Shown here one piece after another: positions 4,892 to 64,000 of a stretch of DNA of 64,000 nucleotides. Source of the stretch: an uncultured Bacilli bacterium. Lineage in GTDB: Bacteria > Bacillota_I > Bacilli_A > RF39 > UBA660. The stretch is from NCBI GenBank assembly GCA_934085595.1, contig CAKOHK010000001.1, positions 145,705 through 209,704 on the forward strand, given 5' to 3'. The translations under genes and the position numbers were made by a program. The notes beneath the pieces are model-generated. The model saw only the letters and a list, made by a program, of their open reading frames with translations, did not search any database and was not told where the DNA came from. Positions within the stretch are counted from its first letter, which is position 1, and every line of letters begins with the position of its first letter.

Positions 4892-5902
4892 TTACATAGC
4901 AAGTGCTAATTTCTCAAGACTATCATTATATTTGCTTTTAAGTCCTAGTTCTAATATCTCTCCAAAATGGTCACATAAATTATCAAACTCACTAGTTGCA
5001 TAGCGATCTTGATTTGGACATATTTGATAATTAAATCCATAATCTACAAGAAATGGTCTAATTAATCTATCTTGCCATCTTTCTCCTTGATATAAAATTA
5101 CTCTTTGCCCACATACATTAACTTGCATCCATCCAAGTACTTCAGTAGCAAAACTTTCTCTTATATCAGCAGTAACGTCACATACTCTTTGATATTCTTC
5201 ATATTTAGCACTCATTCTATTAAACGAATCTATATCATACTCTTTAAGTCCATCCATAAATGTTCTAAATAAACTTCCATGATCTTGTCTTCCATAACCA
5301 CCAGCAGCTTTATCATCATATTGACTAACAAGCTCACCATTAGGAAGTATCCAACCTCTAAAACTACTATTTCCACTTTTAGATGTAATATCTTCCATAA
5401 ACGAATCTATTATTTGCTTTTTATATTGTTCTCTTCTTTCTCTTTCAAGTCTTTCCCTTTCAAGTCTTTCTCTTTCGAGTCTTTCCCTTACAAGTCTTTC
5501 TCTTTCAAGTCTTTCTTGATCAATATCATCGCTTGTATTTGTTTGACTTTCTTCATTCTTAGTTTCTTCAGTAGTCTTACTAGTTTTACATAAATAAAGT
5601 GCTATTCTTTCAAGCTTTCTTATAACAGAATCTGTATTTTCACCTTTTGCAAGTTCATTTCTACAATAAGTTGTTAATTGAAGTAAACTCACTCCAGTAT
5701 CACGGCTTAAAGTAAGCAATAAATCATTTAGTACTACAGCACTATTAATATTACTATAACCGTTATTTAAATTACCATATCTTACATATCCTCTATCATC
5801 ATTACTATAGATTATTTTATCATTATTATTATACTTTATATCGTTATACTTATTATTTTCAATTTTTATATTATAATATTTTTTATCATCATAATATGAC
5901 AT
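4892..5902 (-). CDS. Hypothetical protein with a central (RERLE)n repeat
   Basis: 336 aa. The central ERLERERLVRERLERERLERERLERERRE is encoded by a 15-nt tandem DNA repeat. The C-terminal half is Cys/Trp-containing and unrecognised. Confidence 0.4.
   Translation of the reverse strand: MSYYDDKKYYNIKIENNKYNDIKYNNNDKIIYSNDDRGYVRYGNLNNGYSNINSAVVLNDLLLTLSRDTGVSLLQLTTYCRNELAKGENTDSVIRKLERIALYLCKTSKTTEETKNEESQTNTSDDIDQERLERERLVRERLERERLERERLERERREQYKKQIIDSFMEDITSKSGNSSFRGWILPNGELVSQYDDKAAGGYGRQDHGSLFRTFMDGLKEYDIDSFNRMSAKYEEYQRVCDVTADIRESFATEVLGWMQVNVCGQRVILYQGERWQDRLIRPFLVDYGFNYQICPNQDRYATSEFDNLCDHFGEILELGLKSKYNDSLEKLALAM
5436..5520 (-). repeat. In-frame 15-nt tandem repeat (about 5 copies) encoding the RERLE repeats
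   Basis: Plus strand reads ctttcaagtctttcc / ctttcaagtctttct / ctttcgagtctttcc ... inside CDS 4892..5902. Confidence 0.7.
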
Positions 5903-5995
5903 AGATTTACCCCCTTAATAAAAGTATTTACATTATAGCATATTTCTTCCATTTTGTCAAATTATTGTTCGTACGCAAAACCTTAAATAATATAA

Positions 5996-8890: not shown

Positions 8891-10195
8891 CTATATACTT
8901 TTTATAACTATATTATGTACTCTTTTCTTTTTATTATTTATTATAAATGCATTTTTAAATCTATTTTCCATATCATCTATGTTCTTATTATAATATATAA
9001 TTCCAAGTATATCATTACATCTTATCTTTTTACCTAAGTTTTCATTTATGTATACTCCTACATTATAATCTATATTATCTTCTTTTTTACTTCTTCCAGC
9101 ACCTAAATCAAATACTAGTTTCGCTATTTCTTCTGCATCTATTTTATTTAAATATCCTTCTTTATCACTACTTACTATATATTTATTAGCTTTAATTTCA
9201 AATCCATTTAATGTTCCATGTTGTGCTTTTATCCATTCATAAAACTTAGCTCTTGCCATTCCACTTTTAATACTTAATATAACCATTTCTTTTGCTTTTT
9301 TAAATGTTTTATTAAGTGAAACACTTACCATAGTACTTGCTATATAAATACATAATTCATATAATCTTTTATCATATATTCCATCAAAGAACTTAATTGC
9401 TTCTAATACTTCAAGTTTATTTCCAACATATTTTCCAAGTGGATTTTCCATATCACTAAGAACGCATATTAATTTCTTATTATATCTTTTAGCAATATTT
9501 TTCATAAGTTTACTAAGTTTAATAGCATCTTTCCTATTCTTCATGAAAGCACCACTACCTACTTTTAAATCTATAACTATACTATCAGCGCCACAAGCAA
9601 TCTTCTTAGACATAATAGAACTTGCTATTAAAGGTATTGAATTAGTAGCTCCAATTTCATTTCTAAGTGCATATATTTTTTTATCAGCAATGCACATATC
9701 ATCACTTTGACTAATTACATAACATCCTACTTTAGATAAAATATTTTTACTCTCTTCATCACTTATATTAAGTTTATAACCGCGAATGCTCTCAAGCTTA
9801 TCAGCAGTTCCACCAGTAAGTCCAAGACCCCTACCACTCATTTTAGGAACAGCCACTCCAAGAGATGCTACAATCGGAGCAACTATTATTGATACTTTAT
9901 CTCCAACTCCACCAGTAGAATGTTTATCTACTATCTTTTTATCTAAAAAACTCATATCATTAACTTTACCACTTTTAATCATAACATCAGTTAAATAATA
10001 AGTTTCTTCTTCGCTAATACCATTATTATATATATTAAGAATAAACTTACTCATATCTTTATCATTTATTTTGCCTTTAACATACCCCATAACCATATAT
10101 TCTATTTCACTATAAGTAAGTTTTTCTTTACCAGTTTTATTAATAATCTTATCTTTCATATATTCCCTTTCTATTCTATAACTATTATATAACAA
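8891..10195 (-). CDS. pdp: Pyrimidine-nucleoside (thymidine) phosphorylase
   Basis: 434 aa. HSTGGVGDKVS and SGRGLGLTGGTADKLESI are the family's signature motifs. Confidence 0.9.
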   Translation of the reverse strand: MLYNSYRIEREYMKDKIINKTGKEKLTYSEIEYMVMGYVKGKINDKDMSKFILNIYNNGISEEETYYLTDVMIKSGKVNDMSFLDKKIVDKHSTGGVGDKVSIIVAPIVASLGVAVPKMSGRGLGLTGGTADKLESIRGYKLNISDEESKNILSKVGCYVISQSDDMCIADKKIYALRNEIGATNSIPLIASSIMSKKIACGADSIVIDLKVGSGAFMKNRKDAIKLSKLMKNIAKRYNKKLICVLSDMENPLGKYVGNKLEVLEAIKFFDGIYDKRLYELCIYIASTMVSVSLNKTFKKAKEMVILSIKSGMARAKFYEWIKAQHGTLNGFEIKANKYIVSSDKEGYLNKIDAEEIAKLVFDLGAGRSKKEDNIDYNVGVYINENLGKKIRCNDILGIIYYNKNIDDMENRFKNAFIINNKKKRVHNIVIKSI

Positions 10196-10231: not shown

Positions 10232-11266
10232 CTATTTATCAAGAACTAATCTCGTTAGTGAATCTGAATAATTAATTCCATTACTAAACTTACTAGCTTT
10301 ATTAAAAGTATCTACACTCATAGATGCAATCATATTATACTTAAGTTCTTTTAATATCTCATCATAATATTTAGTAGTAGAAACAAGTTGATCATTATAT
10401 TTTGCATTCTCTTCAAAAACTCTTGCATCTACACTATTATCATATTTTATTAATCTTTCTATACTATCATCTCCATATAAAAATCTAACAAACACATTTT
10501 CTAATCCAGTAGACCATAAAGAACCATTTTCATCTTTATATCTTGTATTTCTTTGAATATCATTAAGTATATCTACTATACGATCAAAATCATATGAAAC
10601 CCTATATTTCCTAATCATATCGCCTTCTACTTTTAAATAAGTATCATTACTACAATTACGAAATACAAGATACCTAATATAATCTTTTTTACTTATTTCA
10701 TCTATTACTTCATAACTTATTGCTTCCATAACTGATTCATATAAACTTTTAAGATTAGGAAGATTAGAAGCTACATTTCTTTGTCTATATAACTCTCTTA
10801 TTTTATATAATTCTTTAGCATTAGCATTATTATCTTCTCTTTCTTTTATTTCTTTATCTATTAAAGAAACTAAATCTTCTTCACCATTATATTTTAAAAG
10901 TCCACTAATCGCAAGAGCTCCCATATATTCATTACTAAAGCATATATCATCTAAAAAAAATTCTTCTTCATCTTCTTCATCAAAATCATAAGCAACTCCA
11001 AGTAACATCGCAGTAAGTTTATAAAGTAAAGAATGATAAACTAATTTATATTCTATTTTTCCATCTTTACCTTCTTCTATAGTACTATCATCAAACTTTA
11101 CATACTTAAAATCAAGATCTTTTTTATCAAGAACGCCTTTATCTAACTTACTAGAATATTCAAAGTTACCCTTTCTAATCTCTAAAAATAAATCTTTAAG
11201 TTTATCATAATCAATATCTACTTTATATTTATAAAGCATTCCATCTTTTTCTTCAATATATTTCAT
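10232..11266 (-). CDS. Tandem-array paralog 1 (344 aa), unknown function
   Basis: Starts MKYIEEKDGMLYKYKVDIDYDKLKDL and ends LTRLVLDK, with GGAGG 7 nt upstream. Shares an N-domain, a DLVSLIDKEIKERE hinge and a C-domain (ELYxQRxVAS..., INIFR-like, FPxxxYNM, YYxEILxEL) with 11292..16902. Confidence 0.6.
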   Translation of the reverse strand: MKYIEEKDGMLYKYKVDIDYDKLKDLFLEIRKGNFEYSSKLDKGVLDKKDLDFKYVKFDDSTIEEGKDGKIEYKLVYHSLLYKLTAMLLGVAYDFDEEDEEEFFLDDICFSNEYMGALAISGLLKYNGEEDLVSLIDKEIKEREDNNANAKELYKIRELYRQRNVASNLPNLKSLYESVMEAISYEVIDEISKKDYIRYLVFRNCSNDTYLKVEGDMIRKYRVSYDFDRIVDILNDIQRNTRYKDENGSLWSTGLENVFVRFLYGDDSIERLIKYDNSVDARVFEENAKYNDQLVSTTKYYDEILKELKYNMIASMSVDTFNKASKFSNGINYSDSLTRLVLDK

Positions 11267-11291
11267 TTCAAAACCTCCATTAAATACTATA

Positions 11292-12143
11292 TTATTTTTT
11301 AAGAACTAATTTTGATATTTCTTCTTCACTTACATCATTATCAAATTCCATTATTCTTGTAACTACTTCCTTAGGTCCAGTTTCAATTAATTCAAATCTA
11401 AGTTCATTTAATATCTCATCATAATAATCTTGAGGTAAACCTACATTCATATTATATTTACTATTTGGAAACTCTATTCTAGCATCCATTAATAATTTAA
11501 TAGTTTCATCTATGTTACCATTGCTTATAGTAAGTTTATCAGCAACACCAAGTTGCTTAAAACGTTCTAAGCATCCACGTCTAAATATATTAATTTTTTC
11601 TTTTTTACTATCATATTGTATTAATGCTGAAATATATTCCTTTCCATTTAATACACCCCTTAATATCTGTTCTAAATTAGTCTTTGTCACAAAATATTCA
11701 GAATCCATAAATCCAGTATTTTCATCCAAATTAGCAAGTATTTCTTCCATCTTTTGTCTATCAAATGTTACTTCAAATTTATAATAAGAATCACCATCTA
11801 TTTTTAAATATTGAGTTTCAGATAAAGCTAATACTTTTTTACCCTTCAAATACTCTTCTTTACTTATTTCATCTACTTTTTCAAAATCAAAGTATTTCAT
11901 AAACTCATCAAATCTACCTACAAATCCAATAGGTCCAAATCGTTTAGCTATTGCTTCTTTTCTATCATATAATTTCTTTATTTCACATAATTCTTTAAAT
12001 GCATTATCAAAATCTAGTGCTTTTCTAAAAGCACATTTTCTTCTTTCAATATCTTCATCTATTGATAATAGTAGTTTATCTTCTTCCCTAGCTTTTACAA
12101 GATATTTATAAAGCATTCCATCTTTTTCTTCAATATATATCAT
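11292..12143 (-). CDS. Tandem-array paralog 2, internally deleted (N-domain mostly missing)
   Basis: Likely start MIYIEEKDGMLYKY at 12143 with GGAGG upstream. The ORF track begins 8 codons earlier at 12167. After about 25 aa it jumps straight into the C-domain (KELCEIKKLYDRKEAIAKRF...) and ends ISKLVLKK. Confidence 0.5.
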   Translation of the reverse strand: MIYIEEKDGMLYKYLVKAREEDKLLLSIDEDIERRKCAFRKALDFDNAFKELCEIKKLYDRKEAIAKRFGPIGFVGRFDEFMKYFDFEKVDEISKEEYLKGKKVLALSETQYLKIDGDSYYKFEVTFDRQKMEEILANLDENTGFMDSEYFVTKTNLEQILRGVLNGKEYISALIQYDSKKEKINIFRRGCLERFKQLGVADKLTISNGNIDETIKLLMDARIEFPNSKYNMNVGLPQDYYDEILNELRFELIETGPKEVVTRIMEFDNDVSEEEISKLVLKK

Positions 12144-12156
12144 TTTAAAACCTCCT

Positions 12157-13346
12157 CTAATTAACACATATTATAATATGTTCTATTTTTTTTGTCAATG
12201 ATAATTTCATCACTTCTTCACTTATACCTTCATCAAACTCTACTGCTTTTTTAACTTCTTCCACGCTTTCACTATCAATTAATTTAAATCTTAGTTCACT
12301 TAATATCTCATCATAGTATGCTTGAGGTTCTACTGTTAACTTCGTATTAAATTTACTATAAGGAAATTCGGCTTTAACACTCATTAATCGATCAATAATT
12401 TTGTCTATATCATCACCCATATTATCAGCAATTTCTTTTAAACGTTTTGCATACTTACGTCTAAATATATTAATTTCTTCTTTTTCACTATCATACTTAA
12501 GTAATGATGAAATATCTCCTCTTCCCTTTAATATACTTCTTAATATACATTCTAAATTAGTACTTATTATTATACCTTCATAATTCATAAAGCCACTATT
12601 TTTAACTAGTTTATTAAGTATTTCTTCCATATTATCTTTATTATATGTTACTTCATATTTACAATAACTACCGCATTCTATTTTCAAGCATTGATCTTTA
12701 GATAAAGCAAATATTTCTCTATCTTTAAGATACTCTTCTTTATTTATTTCTCCTACTTTTTTGAAACTAATACAGCCCATAACTTCAGCATACTTATCTA
12801 AAAATCCTGCAGGACTTAAAAGTTTTGACGCTACTTCTCTTTGATAATATAACTCTTCTATCTTAGAAGCTTCTTTAAGTTTACGCTCAGAATCACGTCC
12901 ATACACTCCATCATCTATTATTTTTTTCTTCCTTCTATTTCTTCATCTATTAAAGAAACTAAACTCTCTTCTCCTTCATAATTCAAAAGATTAGAAAGAC
13001 CTAGTATTTGTACATAGTTACTATCAAACCTTTTACCACTAGCATATAGTTCTTTATCAAGCGCTTCAATATTATCATCAAAATCAGCTAACCTACTTAC
13101 ATATTTATAAAGTTTTGAATAGTAAGTTAAATGATAACATAGTCTTTCACCAATTTTACTTTCAGTAATACTATCAGCATAACAAAAATCTAAATCATCC
13201 GCCTTAAGTATTCCATCCTTTAATAACCTATGGTAAATAAAATTACCCTTTCTTATTTCAGAAAATACCTCTTCAAGTCTATCATAATCAATATCTACTT
13301 TATATTTATAAAGCATTCCATCTTTTTCTTCAATATATATCATCAA
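12157..13346 (-). pseudogene. Tandem-array paralog 3, split by a frameshift at an A7 homopolymer. The two ORFs are 12918..13346 (N-domain) and 12157..12906 (C-domain)
   Basis: The N-half ends ...LVSLIDEEIEGRKK*. The C-half continues in the +1 frame as IIDDGVYGRDSERKLKEASKIEELYYQRE. The junction is minus-strand ggaagAAAAAAAtaatag (plus T7 at 12921-12927). One extra A would give a single ORF of about 398 aa. Confidence 0.6.
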
Positions 13347-13365: not shown

Positions 13366-14562
13366 TTACTTTTTAAGAACTAATCTTGATACTATTTCTT
13401 TATTTATTTCACTTTCAAACTTTTCACATCTAGCATATTCTTCAAGATCCATAGTAGAAATTAAAGTAAACTTTAGTTTACTCATTATTTTTTTATAATA
13501 ATCTTGAGGTAACTTTACTTTCATATTATATTCAGCATTTGGAAAATCTTTTTTAGCCGCTTCTAATAACTCAGTTATACGCATCAAATCTTCTTCATTT
13601 TTTCCTTTTTTATTTAACAGCTCTTCAATCTCTTTATAACGCTCATTACATTCTTTTCTGAAAATATTAATTTCTTCTTCAGCACTATTATAATTGATAA
13701 GTTCAGAAATATTAGCTTTACGATCAAATACATCACGTAATATATCTTCTAATTTAGTGGAACGTACATAGACATAAGGTTTATATCCAGTATTTCTATA
13801 TAAAGCATCAGACAATTCTCTCATATTATTTCTATTAAATGTTACTTTATATTTTTGAACATTGTTTCCTTGCACTCTTACATATGTATCATAGCTTTGA
13901 TTAGTAAAGCCTAAATATTTTTCATAGTCTTCTTTACTTATCTCATCTACTTTTTCAAAACTTATAGTTTCCATAACAGATTCATATAGTTTTGAAACAT
14001 CTAAAAGACTAGCTGCTTCTTCTCTTTGATTATATAACTCTTTTATTTTATAAGCTTCCCTAAGTTTCTTATCAAAATCAAATTTATTTTTTTTACTTTC
14101 TAACACTTTAATTCTTTCTTTAATTTCTTCATTTATTAAAGAAACTAGATCTTCTTCTCCATCATATTTTAAAAGTTCAATAAGACTTAATAGTTTTAAA
14201 TATTCACTATCAATCTTTCTATCAAGAGGGTACATTTGATCAGCAAAGTATAAATCATCTCTATGACATTTAACCTCATCTTCATAGCCAAGTAATCTAC
14301 CAATAATTATATAAAGTCTTGAACAGTGAACTAATTCATAACAAGTACCCAACATATCACCATTATTAGAAAGCAAATTCTTTTGATCAAACTTTGTATA
14401 TTCAAAATCTATATCATCCCAGTCATGTATATCTTTACCTAATGAACCAGTATAATAAAAATTACCTTCTTCTATCTTTAACATTAATTCTTTAAGTCTT
14501 TCTTCATCAATATCCACTTTATATTTATAAAGCATTCCATCTTTTTCTTCAATATATTTCAT
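13366..14562 (-). CDS. Tandem-array paralog 4 (398 aa)
   Basis: MKYIEEKDGMLYKYKVDIDEERLKEL ... VSRLVLKK. Full two-domain architecture. Confidence 0.6.
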   Translation of the reverse strand: MKYIEEKDGMLYKYKVDIDEERLKELMLKIEEGNFYYTGSLGKDIHDWDDIDFEYTKFDQKNLLSNNGDMLGTCYELVHCSRLYIIIGRLLGYEDEVKCHRDDLYFADQMYPLDRKIDSEYLKLLSLIELLKYDGEEDLVSLINEEIKERIKVLESKKNKFDFDKKLREAYKIKELYNQREEAASLLDVSKLYESVMETISFEKVDEISKEDYEKYLGFTNQSYDTYVRVQGNNVQKYKVTFNRNNMRELSDALYRNTGYKPYVYVRSTKLEDILRDVFDRKANISELINYNSAEEEINIFRKECNERYKEIEELLNKKGKNEEDLMRITELLEAAKKDFPNAEYNMKVKLPQDYYKKIMSKLKFTLISTMDLEEYARCEKFESEINKEIVSRLVLKK

Positions 14563-14587: not shown

Positions 14588-15709
14588 TTATTTACAAAGT
14601 ACTAACTTAGATGCTACTTCTTCACTTATTCCACTTTCAAACTCTTCTACTTTCTTATATGTTTCAATATCCATAGAAGAAACATTTTCATAATTAAGTT
14701 CACATAATATCTTTTCATAATATCCATATGTTGGAACTATACTCATATTATATTCTGCATAAGGAAAACTATTTCTAACTTCTTCTGTCACATTAATAAG
14801 ATCATCAACACTATTAGAATCTAAAGTGCCTATCTTTTTGGACTGTTCCATGCACTCTCTTCTATATATATTTATTTTTTCTTTATCAGGTTCGTAACTC
14901 AATAATGAAGTTATATTAGTTTTACCATTAATAAACTCAATTAATAGTTTCTCAAGTTCTGTACTTTCAAACTTACCAGAAGCATCCTTATAACGAGTAT
15001 CCATCTGCATAAGACGAAGTAAATAAACAAGACGATTCATATCAAAACATACTTTATTTTTATTAATATATTTTCCATCTTTTACCAAGAATGAATTATT
15101 ATCACATTTACATAGTTCCCTATATTTAGTATAATCTTTCAAACTTATTTCATCTATTTTTTCATAAGTTATTGTATTCATAATATCACTATAAAACCTA
15201 GTAATATCAGGAAGACTAGCTGCTTTTTCTCTTTGATTATATAGTTCTTTTAATATATATAGTCTAGTAAGTCTACCATTAAAATCATATTTAGATAAAC
15301 CACTATAAAGATTCTCTTTTCTCTTTTCTATTTCTTTATCTATTAAAGAAACCAAATCCACTTCCCCACTATAACTTTCAAGTTCATAAAGAGCATACAT
15401 CCTATCATACTCATCACAGTTACTTTTAGAAATTACATCATACTCTAATAATCTATTAGCAAGCTTATATAAATTAGAATAAAGAACTAATTCATAAGAT
15501 AACCCTTTTTCTCTACTAATACTATCTTCATCAAAATCTATATATGAAGTAAAATCTAAATCTTTATATGTAAGTGTTCCTTCTTCTACATCATGACTAT
15601 AATAAAAATTACCATCTTCTATCTTTAATATTAATTCTTTAAGTCTTTCTTCATCTATATCCACTTTATATTTATAAATCATTCCATCTTTTTCTTCAAT
15701 ATATATCAT
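14588..15709 (-). CDS. Tandem-array paralog 5 (373 aa)
   Basis: MIYIEEKDGMIYKYKVDIDEERLKEL ... ASKLVLCK. Confidence 0.6.
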   Translation of the reverse strand: MIYIEEKDGMIYKYKVDIDEERLKELILKIEDGNFYYSHDVEEGTLTYKDLDFTSYIDFDEDSISREKGLSYELVLYSNLYKLANRLLEYDVISKSNCDEYDRMYALYELESYSGEVDLVSLIDKEIEKRKENLYSGLSKYDFNGRLTRLYILKELYNQREKAASLPDITRFYSDIMNTITYEKIDEISLKDYTKYRELCKCDNNSFLVKDGKYINKNKVCFDMNRLVYLLRLMQMDTRYKDASGKFESTELEKLLIEFINGKTNITSLLSYEPDKEKINIYRRECMEQSKKIGTLDSNSVDDLINVTEEVRNSFPYAEYNMSIVPTYGYYEKILCELNYENVSSMDIETYKKVEEFESGISEEVASKLVLCK

Positions 15710-15735: not shown

Positions 15736-16902
15736 CTATTTACCAAGCACTAATTTAGATGCTGCTTCTTTATTTACTTCACTATCAAACTCTTGAGCTT
15801 TGTTATATATTTCACTATCTAGTGAAGGAATAAAAGTATATCTAAGTTCCTTAATTATTTCTTCATAATATGAATCAGTTGAATCTATGCTCATATTATA
15901 TTCAGCATATGGAAACTCATTTCTAAGTTTTTCCATTAGCTCAATCTCACCATCAATATTTTCTTCACTAAGTAAACCAATCTTTCTATAGCGTTCAGCA
16001 CATTTCTTTTTAAAAATATTTGCTTGTTCTTCTTCACTATTATAATTAATTAATGAAGAAATATCTCCTCCTTCATCAAGTATATTAACTAATATACGTT
16101 CTAAATTAGTTGGTACTAATCTTCCATCAAGAGCTTTAAATCTTGTATTATCTTCAATACTTTCTAATATATTTCTCATTCTCTCTTCATCAAATGAAAC
16201 TAAATATTTTCTAGCGTTTTCATTTTCAGTTTTACTAATAATTCTTGAGTTATAGTTAGATAAAACTAAATAAGCCATATAATCTTCTTTTAGAATCTCA
16301 TCTATTCTTTCAAAACTTATAGTGCTCATAACAGCATAAACAAATCTTCTAGCGTCCACAACGTCAGATGCCACTTTTCTTTGTTTATATAGCTCCTTTA
16401 TCTTATAAAGTTCTCCGCACTTTCCAGCATAATCAAACTTAGATGGTTCATTTCCGAGTAAACTTTCTCTTTCCTTAATTTCCTCATCTATTAAAGAAAC
16501 CAAATCCTTTTCACCATTATAATTTAAGAGTTCAAAAAGCCCAGAAGTCATTATATAATCTCTAATATCATCTTCATCACTAAATGGCTCCACGTAATAT
16601 TCTTCAATATCTTCAATATCTTCTTCCATACCAAGTAGTTTATTAACAATCTTATATAAATTTGAATAATAAACAAGTTCATATCTAGAACTAAATAAAC
16701 CGTCACTAAAAATCCAATTTATACTATCAAATCTTGTATAATCAAAATCTAATTCATCAAACTCTAACTTATCTTCATCTAGCGAATTAGAATATTTAAA
16801 GTTACACCCTTTCATCTCATTAAATATTTTTCTAAGTCTTTCTTCATCTATATCTACTTTATACTTATAAATCATTCCATCTTTTTCTTCTAAATATATC
16901 AT
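15736..16902 (-). CDS. Tandem-array paralog 6 (388 aa)
   Basis: MIYLEEKDGMIYKYKVDIDEERLRKI ... ASKLVLGK. GGAGG lies 12 nt after the stop of the upstream metallophosphoesterase gene. Confidence 0.6.
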   Translation of the reverse strand: MIYLEEKDGMIYKYKVDIDEERLRKIFNEMKGCNFKYSNSLDEDKLEFDELDFDYTRFDSINWIFSDGLFSSRYELVYYSNLYKIVNKLLGMEEDIEDIEEYYVEPFSDEDDIRDYIMTSGLFELLNYNGEKDLVSLIDEEIKERESLLGNEPSKFDYAGKCGELYKIKELYKQRKVASDVVDARRFVYAVMSTISFERIDEILKEDYMAYLVLSNYNSRIISKTENENARKYLVSFDEERMRNILESIEDNTRFKALDGRLVPTNLERILVNILDEGGDISSLINYNSEEEQANIFKKKCAERYRKIGLLSEENIDGEIELMEKLRNEFPYAEYNMSIDSTDSYYEEIIKELRYTFIPSLDSEIYNKAQEFDSEVNKEAASKLVLGK

Positions 16903-16914
16903 TTCAAAACCTCC

Positions 16915-18021
16915 CTATTTGATACCGTATCTTTTACTAAACTTATCTATCATAGATAAACTTCTACTATCTCCTACTTCTTCAATAATCTCTTCTTCTA
17001 TAACTTCTTGTGTTATTTCTTCACACACACTACTTTCTTCTTCTTTAAACTGTACATATCTTTTAAACTTATTTTCCGGACTACACACTATATGTGTCAT
17101 AATACTACTCTCTCCAAGAGATATAACCTTATGATCATTATTTAACCATAGTTCCTTTACATTTACAAGTGATATAGTATTATTTCCAGTATTAATAGTT
17201 ATATCTAAAAAACAAGGACACATTTCATTATTAATCATAATATCACTTAAAGTAGGAACTTTAATATATAAACTATTAGCGTGCTCTCTTATCTTAAATC
17301 TGTGTTCATGTCCACTAAGTACTATTCCACAAGCACTTTCTATATCAAGTTTAGTATTATTTTTATATGTTTTACCTAAGTCATGTCTCATAAATATATT
17401 AATCTTAGATAAAACAACTTTAGAAAGACCATACCCAGTAAACACCATATCATGCCTTCTAGAATTAATCATTTCCCCAATATCTATATTAAACTTCTCA
17501 TAAAAACTCATATCATGATTTCCACCAATCATAAAATTAATAATATTTTTATCAAACGGATATTTCTTAATCGTACTATCAATCATATCTATAGGATCAC
17601 TATAATTAACTTTATATATTGACGAAGGCATAAATCCTTCAAATATATCACCACTATTAAATATAATATTTATTCCATTCTTCTTAGCATAATCATATAC
17701 TATTTCCATATATCTATTATCTGAATATTTACTCTCTCTATGTTCATCACTAACAGCTATTATTCTATATATTCTATTAGTACTTTGCATAGGATTTCCA
17801 ACTATAAATATATCTTTATCTTCATTATTAAAAACACTTTTAATTCCATAAGTAATATTACCATTATCATGATAAAATCTATCTAAATTAATACCATAAC
17901 ATTTAAGTCTATTAAGTTTAATATATAACTGTTTATTACTAATTCCAAGTGTGCTAGCCATCTCATTAGCACTCTTCCCGTTTTTAATCATCTCTATTAT
18001 TTTAGCATTGTCTTCATCCAT
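16915..18021 (-). CDS. Helix-turn-helix N-terminal domain fused to a calcineurin-like metallophosphoesterase
   Basis: 368 aa. N-terminal GKSANEMASTLGISNKQLYIKLNRLK looks like an HTH. MPE motifs appear in canonical order: SDEH, GDIFEG, GGNHD, RHD, SGHEHR. Confidence 0.65.
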   Translation of the reverse strand: MDEDNAKIIEMIKNGKSANEMASTLGISNKQLYIKLNRLKCYGINLDRFYHDNGNITYGIKSVFNNEDKDIFIVGNPMQSTNRIYRIIAVSDEHRESKYSDNRYMEIVYDYAKKNGINIIFNSGDIFEGFMPSSIYKVNYSDPIDMIDSTIKKYPFDKNIINFMIGGNHDMSFYEKFNIDIGEMINSRRHDMVFTGYGLSKVVLSKINIFMRHDLGKTYKNNTKLDIESACGIVLSGHEHRFKIREHANSLYIKVPTLSDIMINNEMCPCFLDITINTGNNTISLVNVKELWLNNDHKVISLGESSIMTHIVCSPENKFKRYVQFKEEESSVCEEITQEVIEEEIIEEVGDSRSLSMIDKFSKRYGIK

Positions 18022-18281: not shown

Positions 18282-19022
18282 TTATTCCCTTTCAAAGCAA
18301 TCATTTACCTCACTATAACTATATCCTTTTCTAAGTAAATAATTAATTATCATATTTTTATCTTTATATTTCTTACTTGCTTTATTAAACTCATTAATTA
18401 TATTAGAATTATCTATATTTATATTACAAAGTTTACTACTTATCATATCTTTATCATATCCCATATTATATAAATCTATTTTAAGTTTATTTATTATCAT
18501 ATAACTACTTTTATTCTTAAGTGTTTTAAGTTTCTTTTCTATTATTTTATTTATTTTGTCTTCCCATACTTTATCATCAAATGTATATAAATATCCATCT
18601 ATTTCTTCACTACTAAACCCATTATCTATAAGTTCTCTTTTAATTTTATATGGTCCATCATACCCAAGATTAACTTTATCATTTATAAAACACTCTATAT
18701 ATACTTTATTATTAAGTAGTCCAAGTTCTTCTATTTTATTTATTGCAAAATCTATATATTTATTATCAAACTCTTTCTTTTCTAAATATTTAATAAGTTC
18801 CTTTTTATTTCTAAGTTTTACTTCTATATAACTAAGTAACATATGATATGCTTCATAATATTTATTTTCATCTATCATATTTGATAATTCTTCTATATTT
18901 ATATCACTTTTTAATAATAAATTATATTTAAGTATAATTTCTTCATATAAACATATTTGACTATCTTCTAAATATACATTATATCTATTCTTACCTACTT
19001 TTTTATACTTAGTAATTTTCAT
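18282..19022 (-). CDS. RecX-like regulatory protein
   Basis: 246 aa of three helical repeats. AINKIEELGLLNNKVYIECFINDKV and IINYLLRKGYSYSEV resemble RecX repeat signatures. Confidence 0.45.
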   Translation of the reverse strand: MKITKYKKVGKNRYNVYLEDSQICLYEEIILKYNLLLKSDINIEELSNMIDENKYYEAYHMLLSYIEVKLRNKKELIKYLEKKEFDNKYIDFAINKIEELGLLNNKVYIECFINDKVNLGYDGPYKIKRELIDNGFSSEEIDGYLYTFDDKVWEDKINKIIEKKLKTLKNKSSYMIINKLKIDLYNMGYDKDMISSKLCNINIDNSNIINEFNKASKKYKDKNMIINYLLRKGYSYSEVNDCFERE

Positions 19023-20300: not shown

Positions 20301-21818
20301 TTATTCTATAACAAATGGATTATCTTTACTTCCATCACCTGACATATATTGCACACTCGAAGATAAAAATAATACGGGTCTTATATTATTATCAGTGTTA
20401 GTAGGCAAATAACTAGTTAAAGATCCATCATTAACTATGTTCATTACATTAGCAGCACTACCAGAACGAGGCGAAATTGTCCAATAATAAGAAGAATTAG
20501 CTAACCAATTAGTACTTGTACAAGTAGAATTATTATATGAACTTCCTAAAGTAGATGTATTATAGCATCCGCTACTTGCATACATATAATCACTCGGATA
20601 TACAAGTCCAACTTCTCCATCCCATGTTTGTTTATTTCCACTTGGCACACTTGTACTTCTTTCTTGAGTATATACTTGTTTTGTATTTCCAAAACTCATT
20701 CCATTTAATACTATATTTCCAAGATACCATTTTGTACTGCTTATTTGATTTCTTGCTTCAGCCGTTAATCCATTACTTGCATATGTTCCAGTTCTATTGT
20801 AATAATTCCCACTATTTAATGTTGTCTTTAAAGATGCTGTTGTCCAATCATTTTTTGATGCAGAAAACGCCACTTTTCCTATTTGATTCCTAATTATTTT
20901 TACTTTATTTTCTTTAGTATATGTTCCATCTTCATTTGGTGTTTCCACTTCAAATACCCCAATTATTCTCCATCTCTCAATTTCATCATTAAATGTTATA
21001 TAATTATTTGGACTTTTACCTTGATATCTATATTCAGTTGAATTATATTTTTGATTACCTGTTGCAGTTTGGTCAATTTTGGTTAGCTTCAAAGTTTGAT
21101 AATTACTTACTAAATACGTCACCAAAGATTTACTTTCTTCAAAATATAAACTGCATTTAGTTTGTTTATTTGAACCTATAATTATTTTTTTATTTAAAGT
21201 ATCATATTCTACTGTAGCATCATTATTACAAGTATAACTCTTTAACTTATAATATTTATTTAAATCGAGTTCATTTACTCTCTCACTATCAACATATAAT
21301 GCTGTTGTTTCAAAATCATATTTCCAGTAGTCATCTAAAATTTCTGTATATGTATCAAGAACTTTAATTTCATCTACGTCGTTAAATGAATATCCCCCAA
21401 ATACCATAAGTGATAATGTTTGTTTTTCATTGCTTTCATTTTTAATTATAAGTGATATTGTTCTTTTAGTGAGTATTCCTCCAAATGCTGGTTCAAGATA
21501 ATCTGAAGCATATTTAACATCAATGTAATCGTTATTTAAATATGCAAGTTTATAGTTAGTAGAAACTGCATTTAAACTTGTTATTTCTATAGTATGTTCT
21601 GTTTCTCCTGGATCTATATCAATAGTATAAGTGTTTTCATCATCTATTTTTATAGAATACAAAAGTTCCGAAATATACATTTCATTACTTCTATAACTTT
21701 CACTGTTTATAGTAAACTTCGCATAACTAAATGCAAGTAACGGACAAAGTCCGATCAACACTAAAACTATAAAAATGTTTTTCTTTATATAATATATTAC
21801 ATTTTTTCTTATACTCAT
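20301..21818 (-). CDS. Secreted TasA/camelysin-like protein with the shared unrecognised C-terminal domain (family member P1)
   Basis: 505 aa. Signal peptide ends ...LLAFSYAKFTINSE (SipW-cognate-like). C-terminal 260 aa carry NYQTLKLTKIDQTATGNQKYNSTEYRYQG, WRIIGVFEVETP, NQISSTKWYLGN, YPSDYMYASSGCY and NIRPVLFL. Confidence 0.6.
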   Translation of the reverse strand: MSIRKNVIYYIKKNIFIVLVLIGLCPLLAFSYAKFTINSESYRSNEMYISELLYSIKIDDENTYTIDIDPGETEHTIEITSLNAVSTNYKLAYLNNDYIDVKYASDYLEPAFGGILTKRTISLIIKNESNEKQTLSLMVFGGYSFNDVDEIKVLDTYTEILDDYWKYDFETTALYVDSERVNELDLNKYYKLKSYTCNNDATVEYDTLNKKIIIGSNKQTKCSLYFEESKSLVTYLVSNYQTLKLTKIDQTATGNQKYNSTEYRYQGKSPNNYITFNDEIERWRIIGVFEVETPNEDGTYTKENKVKIIRNQIGKVAFSASKNDWTTASLKTTLNSGNYYNRTGTYASNGLTAEARNQISSTKWYLGNIVLNGMSFGNTKQVYTQERSTSVPSGNKQTWDGEVGLVYPSDYMYASSGCYNTSTLGSSYNNSTCTSTNWLANSSYYWTISPRSGSAANVMNIVNDGSLTSYLPTNTDNNIRPVLFLSSSVQYMSGDGSKDNPFVIE

Positions 21819-24803: not shown

Positions 24804-24869
24804 CCACTTCTCCTTTCATATATATTATAGTTGAATAGTTGTTCAACTGTCAACACAAAATAAAAAGAA

Positions 24870-41629: not shown

Positions 41630-43630
41630 CTATTTTATTTCAAATGCAAAGCACGAACTTCCATTACCTGTAATATATGTTACATTAGATTTAAGATATA
41701 ATGTAGGCTGAAAGCCAGGAAAAGCACTATTTGTATCTTGAGGCTGAACTTCGCCATTAGCTGACACAGCTATTGAATTATGGAATATATTAAAGAAAGT
41801 AGGCATAGGTGAAATAGTTAAATTATGAGAATTAACATATAACCAATTTGTATTCCTACAAATACTAGCTCTATAATCTGTATTACAAGTATTTAAATTT
41901 GAACTACATGATGAATTATTATAATCACACGCTTTTTTTGTACTATCATTATAGCAACTACTACTTGCATACATATAATCACTTATGTATATTAACCCTA
42001 CTTTTCCATCCCAAGTTTGACTATTTCCACTATCTACACTTGCGCCTCTCTCTTGGATATATACTTCTGGTGCTGTTTTAAGAAGTCCACCATTTGATGC
42101 ATTATAATCTATGTTACCTATATACCATTTTGTACTACTTATCTGATTTCTTGCACTGTTTGTTAATCCATTATTAGCATATGTACCAGTTCTATTAAAA
42201 TATTCTCCACTATTTAAAGTTCTCATTAATGACGATTTTGTCCAATTGTTTGTACCTGCAGAATCCCAAGCAGCAGCTCCAATTTGATTTCTCACTATTT
42301 TCACTCTATACTGTTTTGTATAGCCATTACCATTAGGAGTTAATACTTCAAAGACTCCAATAATTCTCCACACACCATTATCCATATTTATTCCGGTTGT
42401 CCACATTCCTGTTTCTCCATTAAATATAATATAATTGTTAGGATTTGCCCCTTGATATCTATATTCTGTAGTAGCATAATTTTGATTACCTGTTGCTGCA
42501 TGTGATATTTTAGTTAAACCTAAAGTTTGATAATTACTTATAAGACAATTTGCTAAAGTTTTACCAGAGCATAAAGATTCAATAGGATTATTCCATCTAG
42601 CAGTTAAAACAGTATTTTTAGTTGCTATAGTATTGCTTGTTACTAGATTTCCACTTTCATCATACCATCCGCCAAAATTATATCCGCACTTGCTTGTACT
42701 ACACAATGTTCCATATGTTTCACCTTGCATAACATTCTTTTTTGAGCATTCACTTCCACCATTAGTATCATATACAAGAGTATACATTTTCAAACTCCAC
42801 TTAGCATAAAGAGTAATATCGTTTTTTACTATATCAGTACTTTCAATTTTAGTTTCATATGTTTTACTAGTATACCATCCATCAAAAGTATAATTGTCTT
42901 TACTAGGAGTACATAAATCGCCATAAGCTTGCCCTTTTTGGATACTATCACTCGCGCATCCTCTACCACCATTATTATCAAAAGTTATCTTTTTCATATC
43001 TTTTTCAAATGATACATAACAGTCCATATCATCACTAACAGATAATAATGTTAAAGTATTATTATCATTTAACATACCACATGTATTAGAAGAATACTTA
43101 TATCCAAGAGATGGAATATATTCAAAACTAACTCTATCTAAATATCCAGCATACACTTTATTTTTATTAACTTTTCCCATACTTTCATCTGTACTAAATA
43201 AACTAACTATATACATATTTGTAAATCTCCATGGATCTTTATATGTACCTTTACCTGTAATTTTAGTTCCTTTTTTTACATATTCAGTAACTCTTATATT
43301 ACTATCATCACTATTACTATTATCAGATATCTTTTTACCACTAATCTCCCAGTATGAAAAAGATGCTGTAAGATAACTTAAATTATTTATTTTTGATGTA
43401 TTAACTTCATAATTATTTATAAGTCCTCCAGTAATAAACTTATTATCATAACTTATATTTTTATTATTATATATAAATGGAACTCTATCTTCTTTTATTA
43501 AATATATTTCATTCTTAACATTATTATTTATATAATTATTAGAAACACTTATAGTATCATTAAAAGAATATGCTTTTACATTTATTATCGTAAATAAAAC
43601 TAATAAAGCACTTATAATTATCTTCTTCAT
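41630..43630 (-). CDS. Secreted protein with two Listeria-Bacteroides (Flg_new) repeats and the shared C-terminal domain (family member P2)
   Basis: 666 aa. Signal peptide ...INVKAYSFNDT (TasA-like AxFND). Two ...YTFDGWY...LYAKW / YNFGGWY...LTARW repeats. C-terminal domain carries LTKISHAATGNQNYATTEYRYQG, WRIIGVFEVLTP, NQISSTKWYIGN and YISDYMYASSSCY. Confidence 0.6.
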   Translation of the reverse strand: MKKIIISALLVLFTIINVKAYSFNDTISVSNNYINNNVKNEIYLIKEDRVPFIYNNKNISYDNKFITGGLINNYEVNTSKINNLSYLTASFSYWEISGKKISDNSNSDDSNIRVTEYVKKGTKITGKGTYKDPWRFTNMYIVSLFSTDESMGKVNKNKVYAGYLDRVSFEYIPSLGYKYSSNTCGMLNDNNTLTLLSVSDDMDCYVSFEKDMKKITFDNNGGRGCASDSIQKGQAYGDLCTPSKDNYTFDGWYTSKTYETKIESTDIVKNDITLYAKWSLKMYTLVYDTNGGSECSKKNVMQGETYGTLCSTSKCGYNFGGWYDESGNLVTSNTIATKNTVLTARWNNPIESLCSGKTLANCLISNYQTLGLTKISHAATGNQNYATTEYRYQGANPNNYIIFNGETGMWTTGINMDNGVWRIIGVFEVLTPNGNGYTKQYRVKIVRNQIGAAAWDSAGTNNWTKSSLMRTLNSGEYFNRTGTYANNGLTNSARNQISSTKWYIGNIDYNASNGGLLKTAPEVYIQERGASVDSGNSQTWDGKVGLIYISDYMYASSSCYNDSTKKACDYNNSSCSSNLNTCNTDYRASICRNTNWLYVNSHNLTISPMPTFFNIFHNSIAVSANGEVQPQDTNSAFPGFQPTLYLKSNVTYITGNGSSCFAFEIK

Positions 43631-45198: not shown

Positions 45199-46680
45199 TT
45201 ATTTAATTATAAATGGATTAGTGCTTTTTCCGTTTCCAGAAACAAATTTTACATCAGCATTAAGATACACAGTAGGTCTTATATTGACATCACTAGCAGA
45301 ATCTACACCATTAATATATAAAGTACCTTCACTCTGTGCAATAAGTACAGCGTGTTGGTCTATAGATTCAGGTGACAACAACCAATAAACGGTATTATTC
45401 ATCAGCCAATTAGTACTAACGCACTCATCATCTTTATAATTTCCAGAGTCTGCCCCATCATAACATACATTACTAGCATACATATAATCACTAGGATATA
45501 AAAGTCCTACTTTGCCATCCCATGTTTGACTATTTCCATCCCATACATCAGTACTTCTTTCGCGTGTATATATGCTTTCTGCTGTTCCATAACCACCAGA
45601 AGAATAAACCTGATTACCAAGGTACCATTTCGTAGTACTTATTTGACTTCTAGCTTCATCAGTTAATCCAGTAGTTGTATAATCGCACAAAGGATTAGTA
45701 TCATCATATGGATGAAAATATATTGAACACCCAAGAGGAGAATATCCATATTGTCTATTAAAATATGCTCCTTCATTTAACAAAGTCATAAGTGATGCTT
45801 TTGTCCAATCATTAACAGAGCCAGAAGCAGAACTAAAATCCCAAGCTGCTTGTCCAATAGAATCTCTAACTATTTTAACTTTGTTTTCCTTTTTATAAGT
45901 TCCATCACTCTGAGGTGTTTCTACTTCAAATAATCCAACTATTCTCCACAGTCCCTCTTCTTTATTAAATGTAATATAATTGCTAGGATCTTTCCCTTGA
46001 AATCTGTATTCAGTAGTACTATATTCCTGATTTCCTGTAGCTTCATGCGTTATAGATATTAAATCAAGTTTTTTATAATTATCTATTAAAGTTTGAGCAA
46101 GTGTAGCTGTTTGAATACTTTCTGCGACACCAAGAACACCATAAAACTTCTTTCCTTGATTATAGTTTTGCGCTTTATCAGTATAATTAACAAAACGAAT
46201 TGAAACAGTGTAAGTATGAGTTTCTCCAGGTAATATTTTTTGTGATTCTTTATATGGATACAACACTTCACCCTTATTAGCTATAGCCTCAGTAGTAACT
46301 TGTGGCACAATAACTGTAGAACCATTAACACAGCTTCCATTATCAACACCACTACTACCACAAACGCATCTAATCATAAGTTCATCTTTTTGAATCCCAT
46401 TATAAAGCTTCTGCCATCCAAGACTATAATAAGTTTCTTCATTTCCTTTGTTTTCAACAGTTATAGTTTTCGTAGTTGTCCATCCAGGCTCTATATTTTC
46501 TGCAATTATTTGATTACCATCAGTATATTTAAGTTCAAGCTTAGTAGTACCAACATCTATAGTTTCAGCCACATCATTACCACTAACAGTCTGACTAAAA
46601 TACGCATAAGTAAGCCCAACCGTTAATAAAAATGCAACTGTAAGTACACTTCCATAAATAAACTTTTTATCTTTCATCAT
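45199..46680 (-). CDS. Secreted TasA/camelysin-like protein with the shared C-terminal domain (family member P3)
   Basis: 493 aa. Signal peptide ...VGLTYAYFSQT (AYFSD-type SipW-cognate motif), then TTKLELKY...NIEPGW...ITVENKG as in TasA. C-terminal domain carries ITHEATGNQEYSTTEYRFQG, WRIVGLFEVETP, SQISTTKWYLGN and YPSDYMYASNVCY. Confidence 0.65.
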   Translation of the reverse strand: MMKDKKFIYGSVLTVAFLLTVGLTYAYFSQTVSGNDVAETIDVGTTKLELKYTDGNQIIAENIEPGWTTTKTITVENKGNEETYYSLGWQKLYNGIQKDELMIRCVCGSSGVDNGSCVNGSTVIVPQVTTEAIANKGEVLYPYKESQKILPGETHTYTVSIRFVNYTDKAQNYNQGKKFYGVLGVAESIQTATLAQTLIDNYKKLDLISITHEATGNQEYSTTEYRFQGKDPSNYITFNKEEGLWRIVGLFEVETPQSDGTYKKENKVKIVRDSIGQAAWDFSSASGSVNDWTKASLMTLLNEGAYFNRQYGYSPLGCSIYFHPYDDTNPLCDYTTTGLTDEARSQISTTKWYLGNQVYSSGGYGTAESIYTRERSTDVWDGNSQTWDGKVGLLYPSDYMYASNVCYDGADSGNYKDDECVSTNWLMNNTVYWLLSPESIDQHAVLIAQSEGTLYINGVDSASDVNIRPTVYLNADVKFVSGNGKSTNPFIIK

Positions 46681-51860: not shown

Positions 51861-52041
51861 ACTACCCTCACTCTTATCTAACTAATAACTATCCAAAGTA
51901 TAGCATTTATATAAAACAAAAACAAGTATCATTAATTAGAGAATACTTATACTTTTCAGCACGAATTACAAAGAAATACATTGACAAATCGCAATAAATA
52001 AACTATAATAACAAACAACATTTGAAGGGAGAAATATTATC

Positions 52042-54678: not shown

Positions 54679-54743
54679 CTCCTTTAACTGTTTTATATTA
54701 TATCAAAACTATGGTAGGTGTCAACTTTCAAAAAAGCTATTCT

Positions 54744-62424: not shown

Positions 62425-62478
62425 AATAACCCCCTAAAGCATCTAGATTATATCACATATATGTTTGCATGTCAATTA

Positions 62479-64000
62479 TTACTTAATTATAAACGGACTA
62501 TTACTGCTTCCATTACCTGAAACATAAGATGTATTTGCATCAAGGTATACTGACGGACGTACATCAACATTTGAAAGAGTAACTTCATCAGAGCCTAAAT
62601 TACCACTACTACCAACATACATAACACGAATCATACCAGAAGTTGGTGATATATTCCAAAACCAATTACTAGATGAATACATCCAGTCAGTATTTATGCA
62701 AGTTTCATTTCTATAATCATAGCTTGAACCACTATAACTAAATCCATACATTGTATCATTATTATAGCATCCACTACTTGCATACATATAATCACTTGGA
62801 TACACAAGTCCTACTTTTCCATCCCACGTTTGATTATTTCCACTCCACACACTTGTACTTCTTTCTTGAGCATACAACGCTTTTGTATTTCCATAGCCAA
62901 CACTATTTGTCCAAATCGCATTACCTAAATACCACTTTGTACTACTTATTTGATTTTTAGCTTCATTTGTTAAACCATTACTTGCGTATGTAGCAGTTTT
63001 ATTATAATAATCTCCACTATTTAGTACTCCCATTAATGATGTAATTGCCCAGTTATTATAATTGGATCCTGTTTTTGATGTATTCCACGCTTGTGTACCT
63101 ATGGAATCTCTTATTAACTTCACTTTATACTCTTTTGCGTATCCACTACTACTAGGTGTTTCTACTTCAAACACACCAACAATTCTCCACACTCCAGTTT
63201 CACCATTAAATGTTATATAGTTATTTGGGCTTTTTCCTTGATATCTATATTCAGTTGTTGCATAATTTTGATTTCCTGTTGCTGATTGTGATATTTTAGT
63301 TAGTCCTAAAGTACCATAACTTAGCATCAAATAATCACTAAACTTATTATATTCTTCAAAATACAAACTACATTTAGTTTGTTTAAAAGTATTTATAGTC
63401 AAATCATTAGTTTTCGCATCATATTTCACAGTTGCATTATTTGTACAAGTATAATTAACAAGATTATATTTTTTATTACTATCAAGTTCATCCACTCTAG
63501 TATTATCTACATAAAAAGCAGTTGTCTCATAGTCATAATGTAAATAGTTTGTATCTATTTCTGTGTATGTATCAAGTACTTTCACTTCCTCTACATCATT
63601 AAATAAATATCCTCCAAAGACCATAAGTGATAATGTTTGTTTTCTGTTACTTTTATTTTTAATCGTAAGTGATATTGTTCTTTTAGTAAGTATTCCACCT
63701 AGTGATGGTTCTAAATAATCACCCGCATATCTGATTTCTAAGTTGGTGTTATTTAAATATGCTAATTTATAATTTGATGATATTGCATTTAAACTAGTTA
63801 TCTCTACTGTATGTTCCATTTCACCAGGTTCCATCTCTATTGAATACACATTATTTCCATCTATTTTTATAGAATATAAAAGCTCTGAAATATACATTTC
63901 ATTACTTCTATAACTTTCACTATTTATAGTAAACTTAGCATAACTTAGTGCTAGTACTGGACATAAACTTATCAACACTAAAACTATAAAAATGTTTTTC
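62479..64000 (-). CDS. Secreted TasA/camelysin-like protein with the shared C-terminal domain (family member P4). Its 5' end runs off the window
   Basis: ...KNIFIVLVLISLCPVLALSYAKFTINSESYRS... N-terminus is about 70% identical to P1. C-terminal domain carries LTKISQSATGNQNYATTEYRYQG, WRIVGVFEVETP, NQISSTKWYLGN and YPSDYMYASSGCY. The true start lies beyond 64000. Confidence 0.6.
   Translation of the reverse strand, partial: KNIFIVLVLISLCPVLALSYAKFTINSESYRSNEMYISELLYSIKIDGNNVYSIEMEPGEMEHTVEITSLNAISSNYKLAYLNNTNLEIRYAGDYLEPSLGGILTKRTISLTIKNKSNRKQTLSLMVFGGYLFNDVEEVKVLDTYTEIDTNYLHYDYETTAFYVDNTRVDELDSNKKYNLVNYTCTNNATVKYDAKTNDLTINTFKQTKCSLYFEEYNKFSDYLMLSYGTLGLTKISQSATGNQNYATTEYRYQGKSPNNYITFNGETGVWRIVGVFEVETPSSSGYAKEYKVKLIRDSIGTQAWNTSKTGSNYNNWAITSLMGVLNSGDYYNKTATYASNGLTNEAKNQISSTKWYLGNAIWTNSVGYGNTKALYAQERSTSVWSGNNQTWDGKVGLVYPSDYMYASSGCYNNDTMYGFSYSGSSYDYRNETCINTDWMYSSSNWFWNISPTSGMIRVMYVGSSGNLGSDEVTLSNVDVRPSVYLDANTSYVSGNGSSNSPFIIK

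Follow-up and report, generated by a model that had tools for sequence, protein, structure and literature searches.

We analysed a stretch of 64,000 nt (~25% G+C) from an uncultured Bacilli bacterium (GenBank assembly GCA_934085595.1, contig CAKOHK010000001.1, positions 145,705 to 209,704), hereafter the window. It carries on its minus strand an array of six tightly spaced paralogous genes, c1 to c6, preceded by recX and a gene combining a helix-turn-helix (HTH) motif with a metallophosphoesterase domain, and followed by pdp, the gene of pyrimidine-nucleoside phosphorylase (Table 1). The subject of this work is the fifth copy, c5, which is a truncated member of the window's own paralog family; it has lost the core of the N-terminal module (N-module, module 1) and keeps the C-terminal one (C-module, module 2).

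Table 1. The array, its flanks, the parts of c5 and the perfect promoter matches, with positions in the window.
Feature	Position	Strand	Remarks
recX	18282-19022	minus	upstream flank of the array
HTH + calcineurin-like metallophosphoesterase gene	16915-18021	minus	Pfam PF00149, PF12850; 12 nt upstream of c1
c1	15736-16902	minus	full-length paralog, 388 aa
c2	14588-15709	minus	full-length paralog, 373 aa
c3	13366-14562	minus	full-length paralog, 398 aa
c4	12157-13346	minus	broken here: open reading frames 12918-13346 and 12157-12906
c5	11292-12143	minus	short paralog, 283 codons + TAA stop; start ATG 12143
c6	10232-11266	minus	last paralog, 344 aa; own in-frame deletion of ~40 aa in the C-module
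pdp (pyrimidine-nucleoside phosphorylase)	8891-10195	minus	downstream flank
c5 promoter, TTGACA-17 nt-TATAAT	12170-12198	minus	sigma-70-type, 12/12 matches
Spurious 8-codon extension MLIRGGFK, from GTG 12167	12144-12167	minus	
Shine-Dalgarno GGAGG of c5	12151-12155	minus	7 nt before ATG 12143
Conserved head, c5 codons 1-14 (MIYIEEKDGMLYKY)	12102-12143	minus	42-nt exact tract with c4
c5 deletion junction	12101-12102	minus	TATAAATAT/CTTGTAAAAGC in DNA; equivalent of c3 residues 15-129 gone
N-module tail remnant, c5 codons 15-36 (LVKAREEDKLLLSIDEDIERRK)	12036-12101	minus	
Linker helices and complete C-terminal module, c5 codons 37-283	11295-12035	minus	
Scar of whole-copy loss	11162-11295	minus	matches two places in L001; c5b missing between them
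Other perfect promoter match	5932-5960		
Other perfect promoter match	24824-24853		
Other perfect promoter match	51981-52009		
Other perfect promoter match	54697-54724		
Other perfect promoter match	62447-62475		

The extent of the c5 deletion was assessed by protein alignment, DNA alignment, BLASTP and the addition of c5 to a 16-member family alignment, all of which agreed. BLASTP of c5 against the full-length copies returned two separate matches: residues 1-16 paired with residues 1-16 of those copies at 88-94% identity, and residues ~15/21-283 with ~103/125 to the end of the closest copies at 45-47% identity. Measured against c4, its nearest paralog, c5 has a gap of 104 residues, and against c3 one of 115, which bears out an earlier sequence-only reading of this DNA that put ~100 N-domain residues missing from the copy at 12143. 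The same reading had the first ~25 residues kept and joined directly to the C-domain; the alignments correct it on both points, as only 14 residues (MIYIEEKDGMLYKY) are conserved, and the last ~22 residues of the N-module remain ahead of the motif KELCEIKKLY. The deletion is in frame, with the junction TATAAATAT/CTTGTAAAAGCT. The rejoin point lies inside the N-module tail, ~36 residues ahead of KELCEIKKLY, and c5 residues 15-36 align without a gap to the end of the N-module (LLKYNGEEDLVSLIDEEIKER). Of the family-conserved columns, c5 lacks all 16 that fall between c3 residues 15 and 129, whereas its head presents each of its 10 conserved positions (pattern M[IK]Y[IL]EEKDGM[LI]YKY). The C-module of c5 has 17-19 of the 21 conserved positions and is 45-48% identical to c4-type copies, with BLASTP E-values down to 1e-71.

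The list of open reading frames (ORFs) gives c5 eight further codons (MLIRGGFK) that overlap the upstream gene. The sequence-only reading doubted this extension, rightly so: it is an artefact, because the ORF lister begins each frame at the first start codon that follows a stop. The GTG at 12167 lies only 3 nt after the -10 hexamer of the promoter described below and upstream of the Shine-Dalgarno site, a good one located 7 nt before the ATG at 12143. Moreover, the exact 283-residue c5 protein is present in the public collection, and the 291-residue form is not. The Shine-Dalgarno context, GGAGGTTTT(G/A)AAATG, also stands ahead of the other copies, with that of c4 slightly divergent (GGGAGCTTTTGATG). 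The annotation should be corrected in that c5 starts at ATG 12143 and is a short form, not a pseudogene, and that c4 is the broken copy in this strain.

The window's c4 differs by two one-base indels from the intact 386-residue c4 of a closely related locus (L001); intact 386-residue forms also occur in the public collection. A TAA stop results from the loss of a T at 12920/12921. Through the other indel, an extra A in the run 12186-12193, the normal stop disappears and the C-terminal ORF runs on for ten codons, into the ribosome-binding site of c5; the overlap of c5 with the upstream gene exists only through this loss of the c4 stop codon in this strain. The same extra A sets the spacer of the c5 promoter to 17 nt instead of 16. 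Both indels lie next to or inside A-runs (12921-12927 and 12186-12193), and the A-run variation observed consists of between-strain differences in runs of 7-8 nt only. In another locus, L017, c4 is broken at a different place.

The c5 promoter, TTGACA-17-TATAAT, ends 27 nt before the ATG and sits in a c4-type tail and spacer, with the -35 hexamer in the last c4 codons. Perfect TTGACA-N16-18-TATAAT matches number six in the window, against 0.14 expected, and a promoter scan of the window found no other array copy with such a promoter. The four other perfect matches that were compared with the ORF lists (5932-5960, 24824-24853, 51981-52009 and 62447-62475) are placed just upstream of a gene start. 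As a side observation, the organism seems to use canonical sigma-70 promoters, which helps its annotation. Seven other loci that keep the spacer were compared, and in all of them both c5 promoter hexamers are conserved, at a spacing of 16 or 17 nt. We also observed, at 12017-12034 inside c5 and ~110 nt past its start, a terminator-like palindrome (7 bp, perfect; GTGCTTTTAGAAAAGCAC) with a weak T-rich tail behind it; it is treated as probably due to chance.

For the comparison of strains we used ten strain-level loci, namely the window and contigs from other gut metagenomes with 96-99% DNA identity to it. The same 283-residue c5 with the same junction was found in nine of them (the window, L001, L006-L011 and L019), that is, in every locus having c5. 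The c5 protein cluster has 60 members; the 15 alleles listed are all of 283 residues and differ from the window allele at no more than 12 residues, with many of the changes conservative. By contrast with this uniformity among strains, the body of c5 shares only 45-48% protein identity with its nearest paralogs, the c4 group. The neighbour-joining tree of the C region places c5 as sister to the c4 group (bootstrap 0.77), and the N-module is present in all other family members around it, two of which come from a second lineage. Because of the shared junction, the identity of only 45-48% to the nearest paralogs and the nesting of c5 within a two-module family, the loss of the N-module is best taken as derived and as fixed before the sampled strains diverged; the deletion is probably much older than that divergence. 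The sequence-only reading had seen in the deletion a sign that the array is evolving at present, an interpretation with which this distribution does not agree.

The array as a whole does evolve by recombination between its copies, through copy loss at the heads and the formation of chimeras, and on this point the sequence-only reading was correct. The ten loci carry arrays of 4-7 copies. The largest, in L001, reads c1 c2 c3 c4 c5 c5b c6, where c5b (12078-13202 of L001) is a seventh paralog of 374 residues, c2-like with a c4-like tail, located between c5 and c6. The window has c1 c2 c3 c4(broken) c5 c6; L009 and L010 have c1 c2 c3 c4'(383 aa) c5 c6(351 aa); L006, L007 and L008 have c1 c2 c3 c4''(376 aa) c5 and a c6 remnant (48 aa); L011 has c1 c2, a c3/c4 fusion (394 aa), c5 and c6; L019 has c1 c2 c5 c6; and L017 has ... 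c3 c4(broken) c6. The window lost c5b by a crossover within the c5b and c6 heads, and its 11295-11162 segment has its counterpart at two separate places of L001. In L019, c3 and c4 were removed by a crossover of the c3 head with the c5 head, with a 48-nt overlap. L017 lost c5 and c5b via a 150-nt repeat, 96% identical, in which a c4-type tail is joined by a 39-nt spacer to a head. Mosaic alleles were also observed: P0002 joins a c3 front to a c4 back, P0006 and P0013 are c4 with a c3 patch, and P0019 and P0020 bear another N-module on the c4 C-module. In the heads, taken from the Shine-Dalgarno site through codon 14, DNA identity between copies amounts to 95-97%, compared with 45-65% elsewhere, and it is here that the longest exact tracts shared by any pair of copies (37-59 nt) all lie. 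The array thus offers a natural example, from an uncultured bacterium of the human gut, in which short conserved 5' blocks cause tandem paralogs to be gained, lost and fused. The c6 gene itself occurs as 344- and 351-residue alleles besides the remnant of L006-L008.

The AlphaFold2 model of c3 (mean predicted local distance difference test score, pLDDT, 84.8) shows a beta-hairpin head and an alpha/beta region in residues 1 to ~131, long helices in residues 139-184, and a second alpha/beta and helical region in residues 189-398. The full-length proteins accordingly appear, in the predicted model, to have two modules, each with a beta-hairpin head and an alpha/beta core, separated by long helices. 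Alignment of the N-module with the C-module by hhalign (E 4e-5, probability 69%, led by the hairpin-plus-helix) suggests that the two are related by internal duplication. Weak relatives of ~200-260 residues, apparently single-module, were found at E-values of 1e-5 to 1e-3, in genomic contexts that were uninformative; if they are read as single-module proteins, c5 would effectively be a one-module protein with a leftover head and helices. One such distant relative, a one-module-like protein of 218 residues (P0120, E 3e-4; 8001-8657 of L012), comes from another uncultured bacterium, where its gene overlaps the beginning of one for a RarA/MgsA-type AAA ATPase.

Searches of all copies against Pfam, NCBIfam, PADLOC and PHROGs gave no meaningful match, a profile search of PDB sequences gave nothing, and a fold search with the c3 model gave no match in PDB or BFVD. 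No member of the family was present in GTDB representative genomes or on IMG/VR viral contigs. A word-indexed search of 5.8 billion proteins yielded 22 clusters, and a full profile search of 1.84 billion representatives yielded 18 hits, 11 of them at E ≤ 1e-10. In the nearest species found, labelled as Bacilli or Clostridia metagenome-assembled genomes and 78-81% identical in one flanking protein, neither the array nor the phosphoesterase follows recX, as seen in L003 and L004 from the nearest GTDB species; the block is therefore a lineage-specific insertion between recX and pdp. A closer second lineage has recX, a phosphoesterase 84% identical to that of the window and then at least two paralogs, in the same order. 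The family is narrowly distributed, being confined to one lineage of uncultured gut Bacilli. Some features may make it worth a closer look: among billions of proteins it fills only about a dozen sequence clusters, its predicted fold is confident and matches nothing in the PDB or among viral models, and its copy number differs from strain to strain across gut samples.

Several histories could have produced c5, and they are not equally compatible with these data. That the N-domain is still there, diverged beyond recognition, is as good as excluded because c5 is too short to hold one: at 283 residues it is 90-115 residues shorter than the full-length copies and leaves no room, all the core columns are gone, and residues 15-36 already correspond, gap-free, to the end of the N-module. 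It is also very improbable that c5 preserves an ancestral one-module architecture and received only its head from its neighbours. The distant, apparently one-module relatives and the near identity of the c5 head to the neighbouring heads would fit such an origin, but the module-1 tail and both linker helices stand in register with the two-module copies, and c5 nests among these as the sister of c4. The sequence-only reading attributed the deletion to recombination between copies, which would mean a misaligned crossover or gene conversion and would mark ongoing evolution of the array. Such exchange is frequent in this array, and the left breakpoint coincides precisely with the end of the 42-nt exact tract with c4, as expected of a conversion tract that ends where homology ends. 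Nevertheless, the DNA-level alignment that this reading had called for, while it mapped the junction (12102/12101) and the head tracts, revealed no usable homology at the breakpoints, which share at most ~2 nt beyond the tract in any extant copy; for this reason the c5 deletion is not attributable to inter-copy recombination. A deletion at the one longer stretch of similarity, the motif AAATATAA of YKYK and LKYN, would produce the junction YKYNGEED instead of the observed one, and recombination between the two internal modules would take ~210 residues, not ~105. Moreover, the event is fixed and old, not ongoing, and a tandem crossover would also alter the copy number, which is not checkable for an event of this age. 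Recombination between copies, real elsewhere in the array, is thus not demonstrated for the c5 junction and seems distinctly unlikely as its cause; a non-homologous in-frame deletion would be the simpler reading, although the event is too old for certainty.

The explanation we prefer, and consider reasonably probable as a whole, combines an old non-homologous in-frame deletion with the maintenance of c5 as an expressed module-2 short form whose head acts as a recombination block. A single intragenic event (replication slippage or an illegitimate join) in a c4-like ancestor would have removed the module-1 core, equivalent to c3 residues 15-129, and spared the 14-residue head, the final ~22 residues of that module, the linker helices and the whole of module 2; it would have been fixed before the sampled strains diverged. 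Since then c5 would have been kept as a short form working through module 2, transcribed from its own consensus promoter plus read-through, while the leftover of module 1 drifts. The head may persist because it holds the translation start region, and would be kept uniform by gene conversion, selection or both; the same head serves as the homology block for recombination between copies and so leads to the copy-number changes, including events that use the c5 head or remove c5. The alternative that bears on this second part is that c5 is a dead remnant, inactivated by the deletion, which persists for lack of time or because its head and spacer are useful for recombination or regulation. The two can be compared on how the gene has been conserved. 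The c5 ORF is intact in the window, in eight other loci and in 15 protein alleles, with no frameshift, premature stop or loss of start signals, and random frames are short at 25% G+C. The conserved positions are retained unevenly: 10 of 10 in the head and 17-19 of 21 in module 2, against 6 of 16 in the leftover module 1 and linker (c3 130-200; Fisher p = 0.015 to 0.001), with 4 of 9 in the N-module tail remnant. This pattern would be expected with module 2 constrained and the orphaned remains of module 1 drifting, and neutral decay would not give it. The perfect promoter and the Shine-Dalgarno site likewise speak against a dead gene. We must also acknowledge what weighs against the preferred explanation. 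The ratio of non-synonymous to synonymous polymorphism (pN/pS) of c5 among strains is 0.49, based on few differences, which is above the 0.04-0.12 of the housekeeping neighbours (phosphoesterase 0.04, pdp 0.11); among the other copies it is 0.31 in c1, 0.20 in c2 and 0.47 in c3, so that a full-length copy has the same value as c5. The segregating sites, of which 7 are synonymous and 17 non-synonymous, do not reject neutrality (p = 0.14). L017 is without c5, which is dispensable there, c5 of L019 has lost its promoter-bearing spacer, and some strains show visible decay of the neighbours c4 and c6. Single-sequence AlphaFold prediction gave no usable model of c5 (pLDDT 42.5), and the support for internal duplication of the modules is only moderate. 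Weighing both sides, we regard the dead remnant as unlikely, though with an appreciable chance, and c5 as a short gene that, judging from its conservation and signals, is probably maintained and separately transcribed.

With respect to function, the best explanation is that the family proteins are cytoplasmic and form a lineage-specific tandem family; as a working guess, they might be a diversified set of binding or specificity proteins. The phosphoesterase was considered as a functional clue and set aside, as its more distant homologues stand alone among housekeeping genes; its link to the array may be positional only, although it does recur in one closer lineage. A bolder proposal is that the array is an unrecognised island of the defence or immunity type, made of proteins whose fold has no known relative, with c5 as a maintained one-module isoform under its own strong promoter (for instance a regulator, decoy or dominant partner of the two-module copies), and with one-base changes of the A-runs in the promoter spacer and c4 stop as a contingency switch. 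We hold this to be improbable; should the family turn out to be a conflict system, the short copy with its separate promoter would deserve attention first. Elsewhere in the window, the ORF at 4892-5902 encodes a charged (ERLER)n repeat whose length varies by strain (326-341 aa in L006-L011). A second multigene family comprises four large paralogs (20301-21818, 41630-43630, 45199-46680 and 62479-63978) that have hydrophobic N-termini and a common C-terminal domain (ATGNQ.Y.TTEYRYQG..PNNYI.FN...WRI.GVFEV...).

As reported by Garrett et al. (2022; PMC9484751), conserved blocks of non-identical tandem paralogs mediate recombination, loss, expansion and the formation of chimeras in the strings of esaG (DUF600) and tipC immunity genes at the type VII loci of Staphylococcus and Streptococcus. 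Like those strings, the non-identical tandem paralogs studied here recombine at short conserved blocks between close strains. Unlike them, the paralogs of the window have no DUF600 or TipC match (Pfam, NCBIfam, PADLOC), their proteins are of ~380 residues and apparently two-module, and the main homology block is the 5' head, to which the 150-nt tail-spacer-head repeat is added. No type VII, LXG or WXG toxin genes were recognised among the ORFs of the 64-kb window, by eye and with Pfam on the neighbours only. An immunity function for the array would be pure conjecture. A broad search of the literature on tandem paralogs gave nothing of use.

The A-run near c5 invites a second comparison. The vlp genes of Mycoplasma hyorhinis have a poly(A) tract between the -35 and -10 elements, and their promoters are controlled by this homopolymer. 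Similarly, the c5 promoter has an A-run in the spacer that separates its two hexamers, and one-base indels shift this spacer between 16 and 17 nt among strains. In contrast to vlp, the run has no more than 7-8 A, a promoter can be active with either spacer length, and the variation was seen between strains. Considered as a gene, c5 is a case of ordinary multigene-family evolution in which a truncated paralog was kept. It resembles ordinary domain-loss paralogs in that an in-frame internal deletion leaves a shorter protein with one module, and it differs from them in the exact retention of a 14-codon head and in its dedicated consensus promoter.

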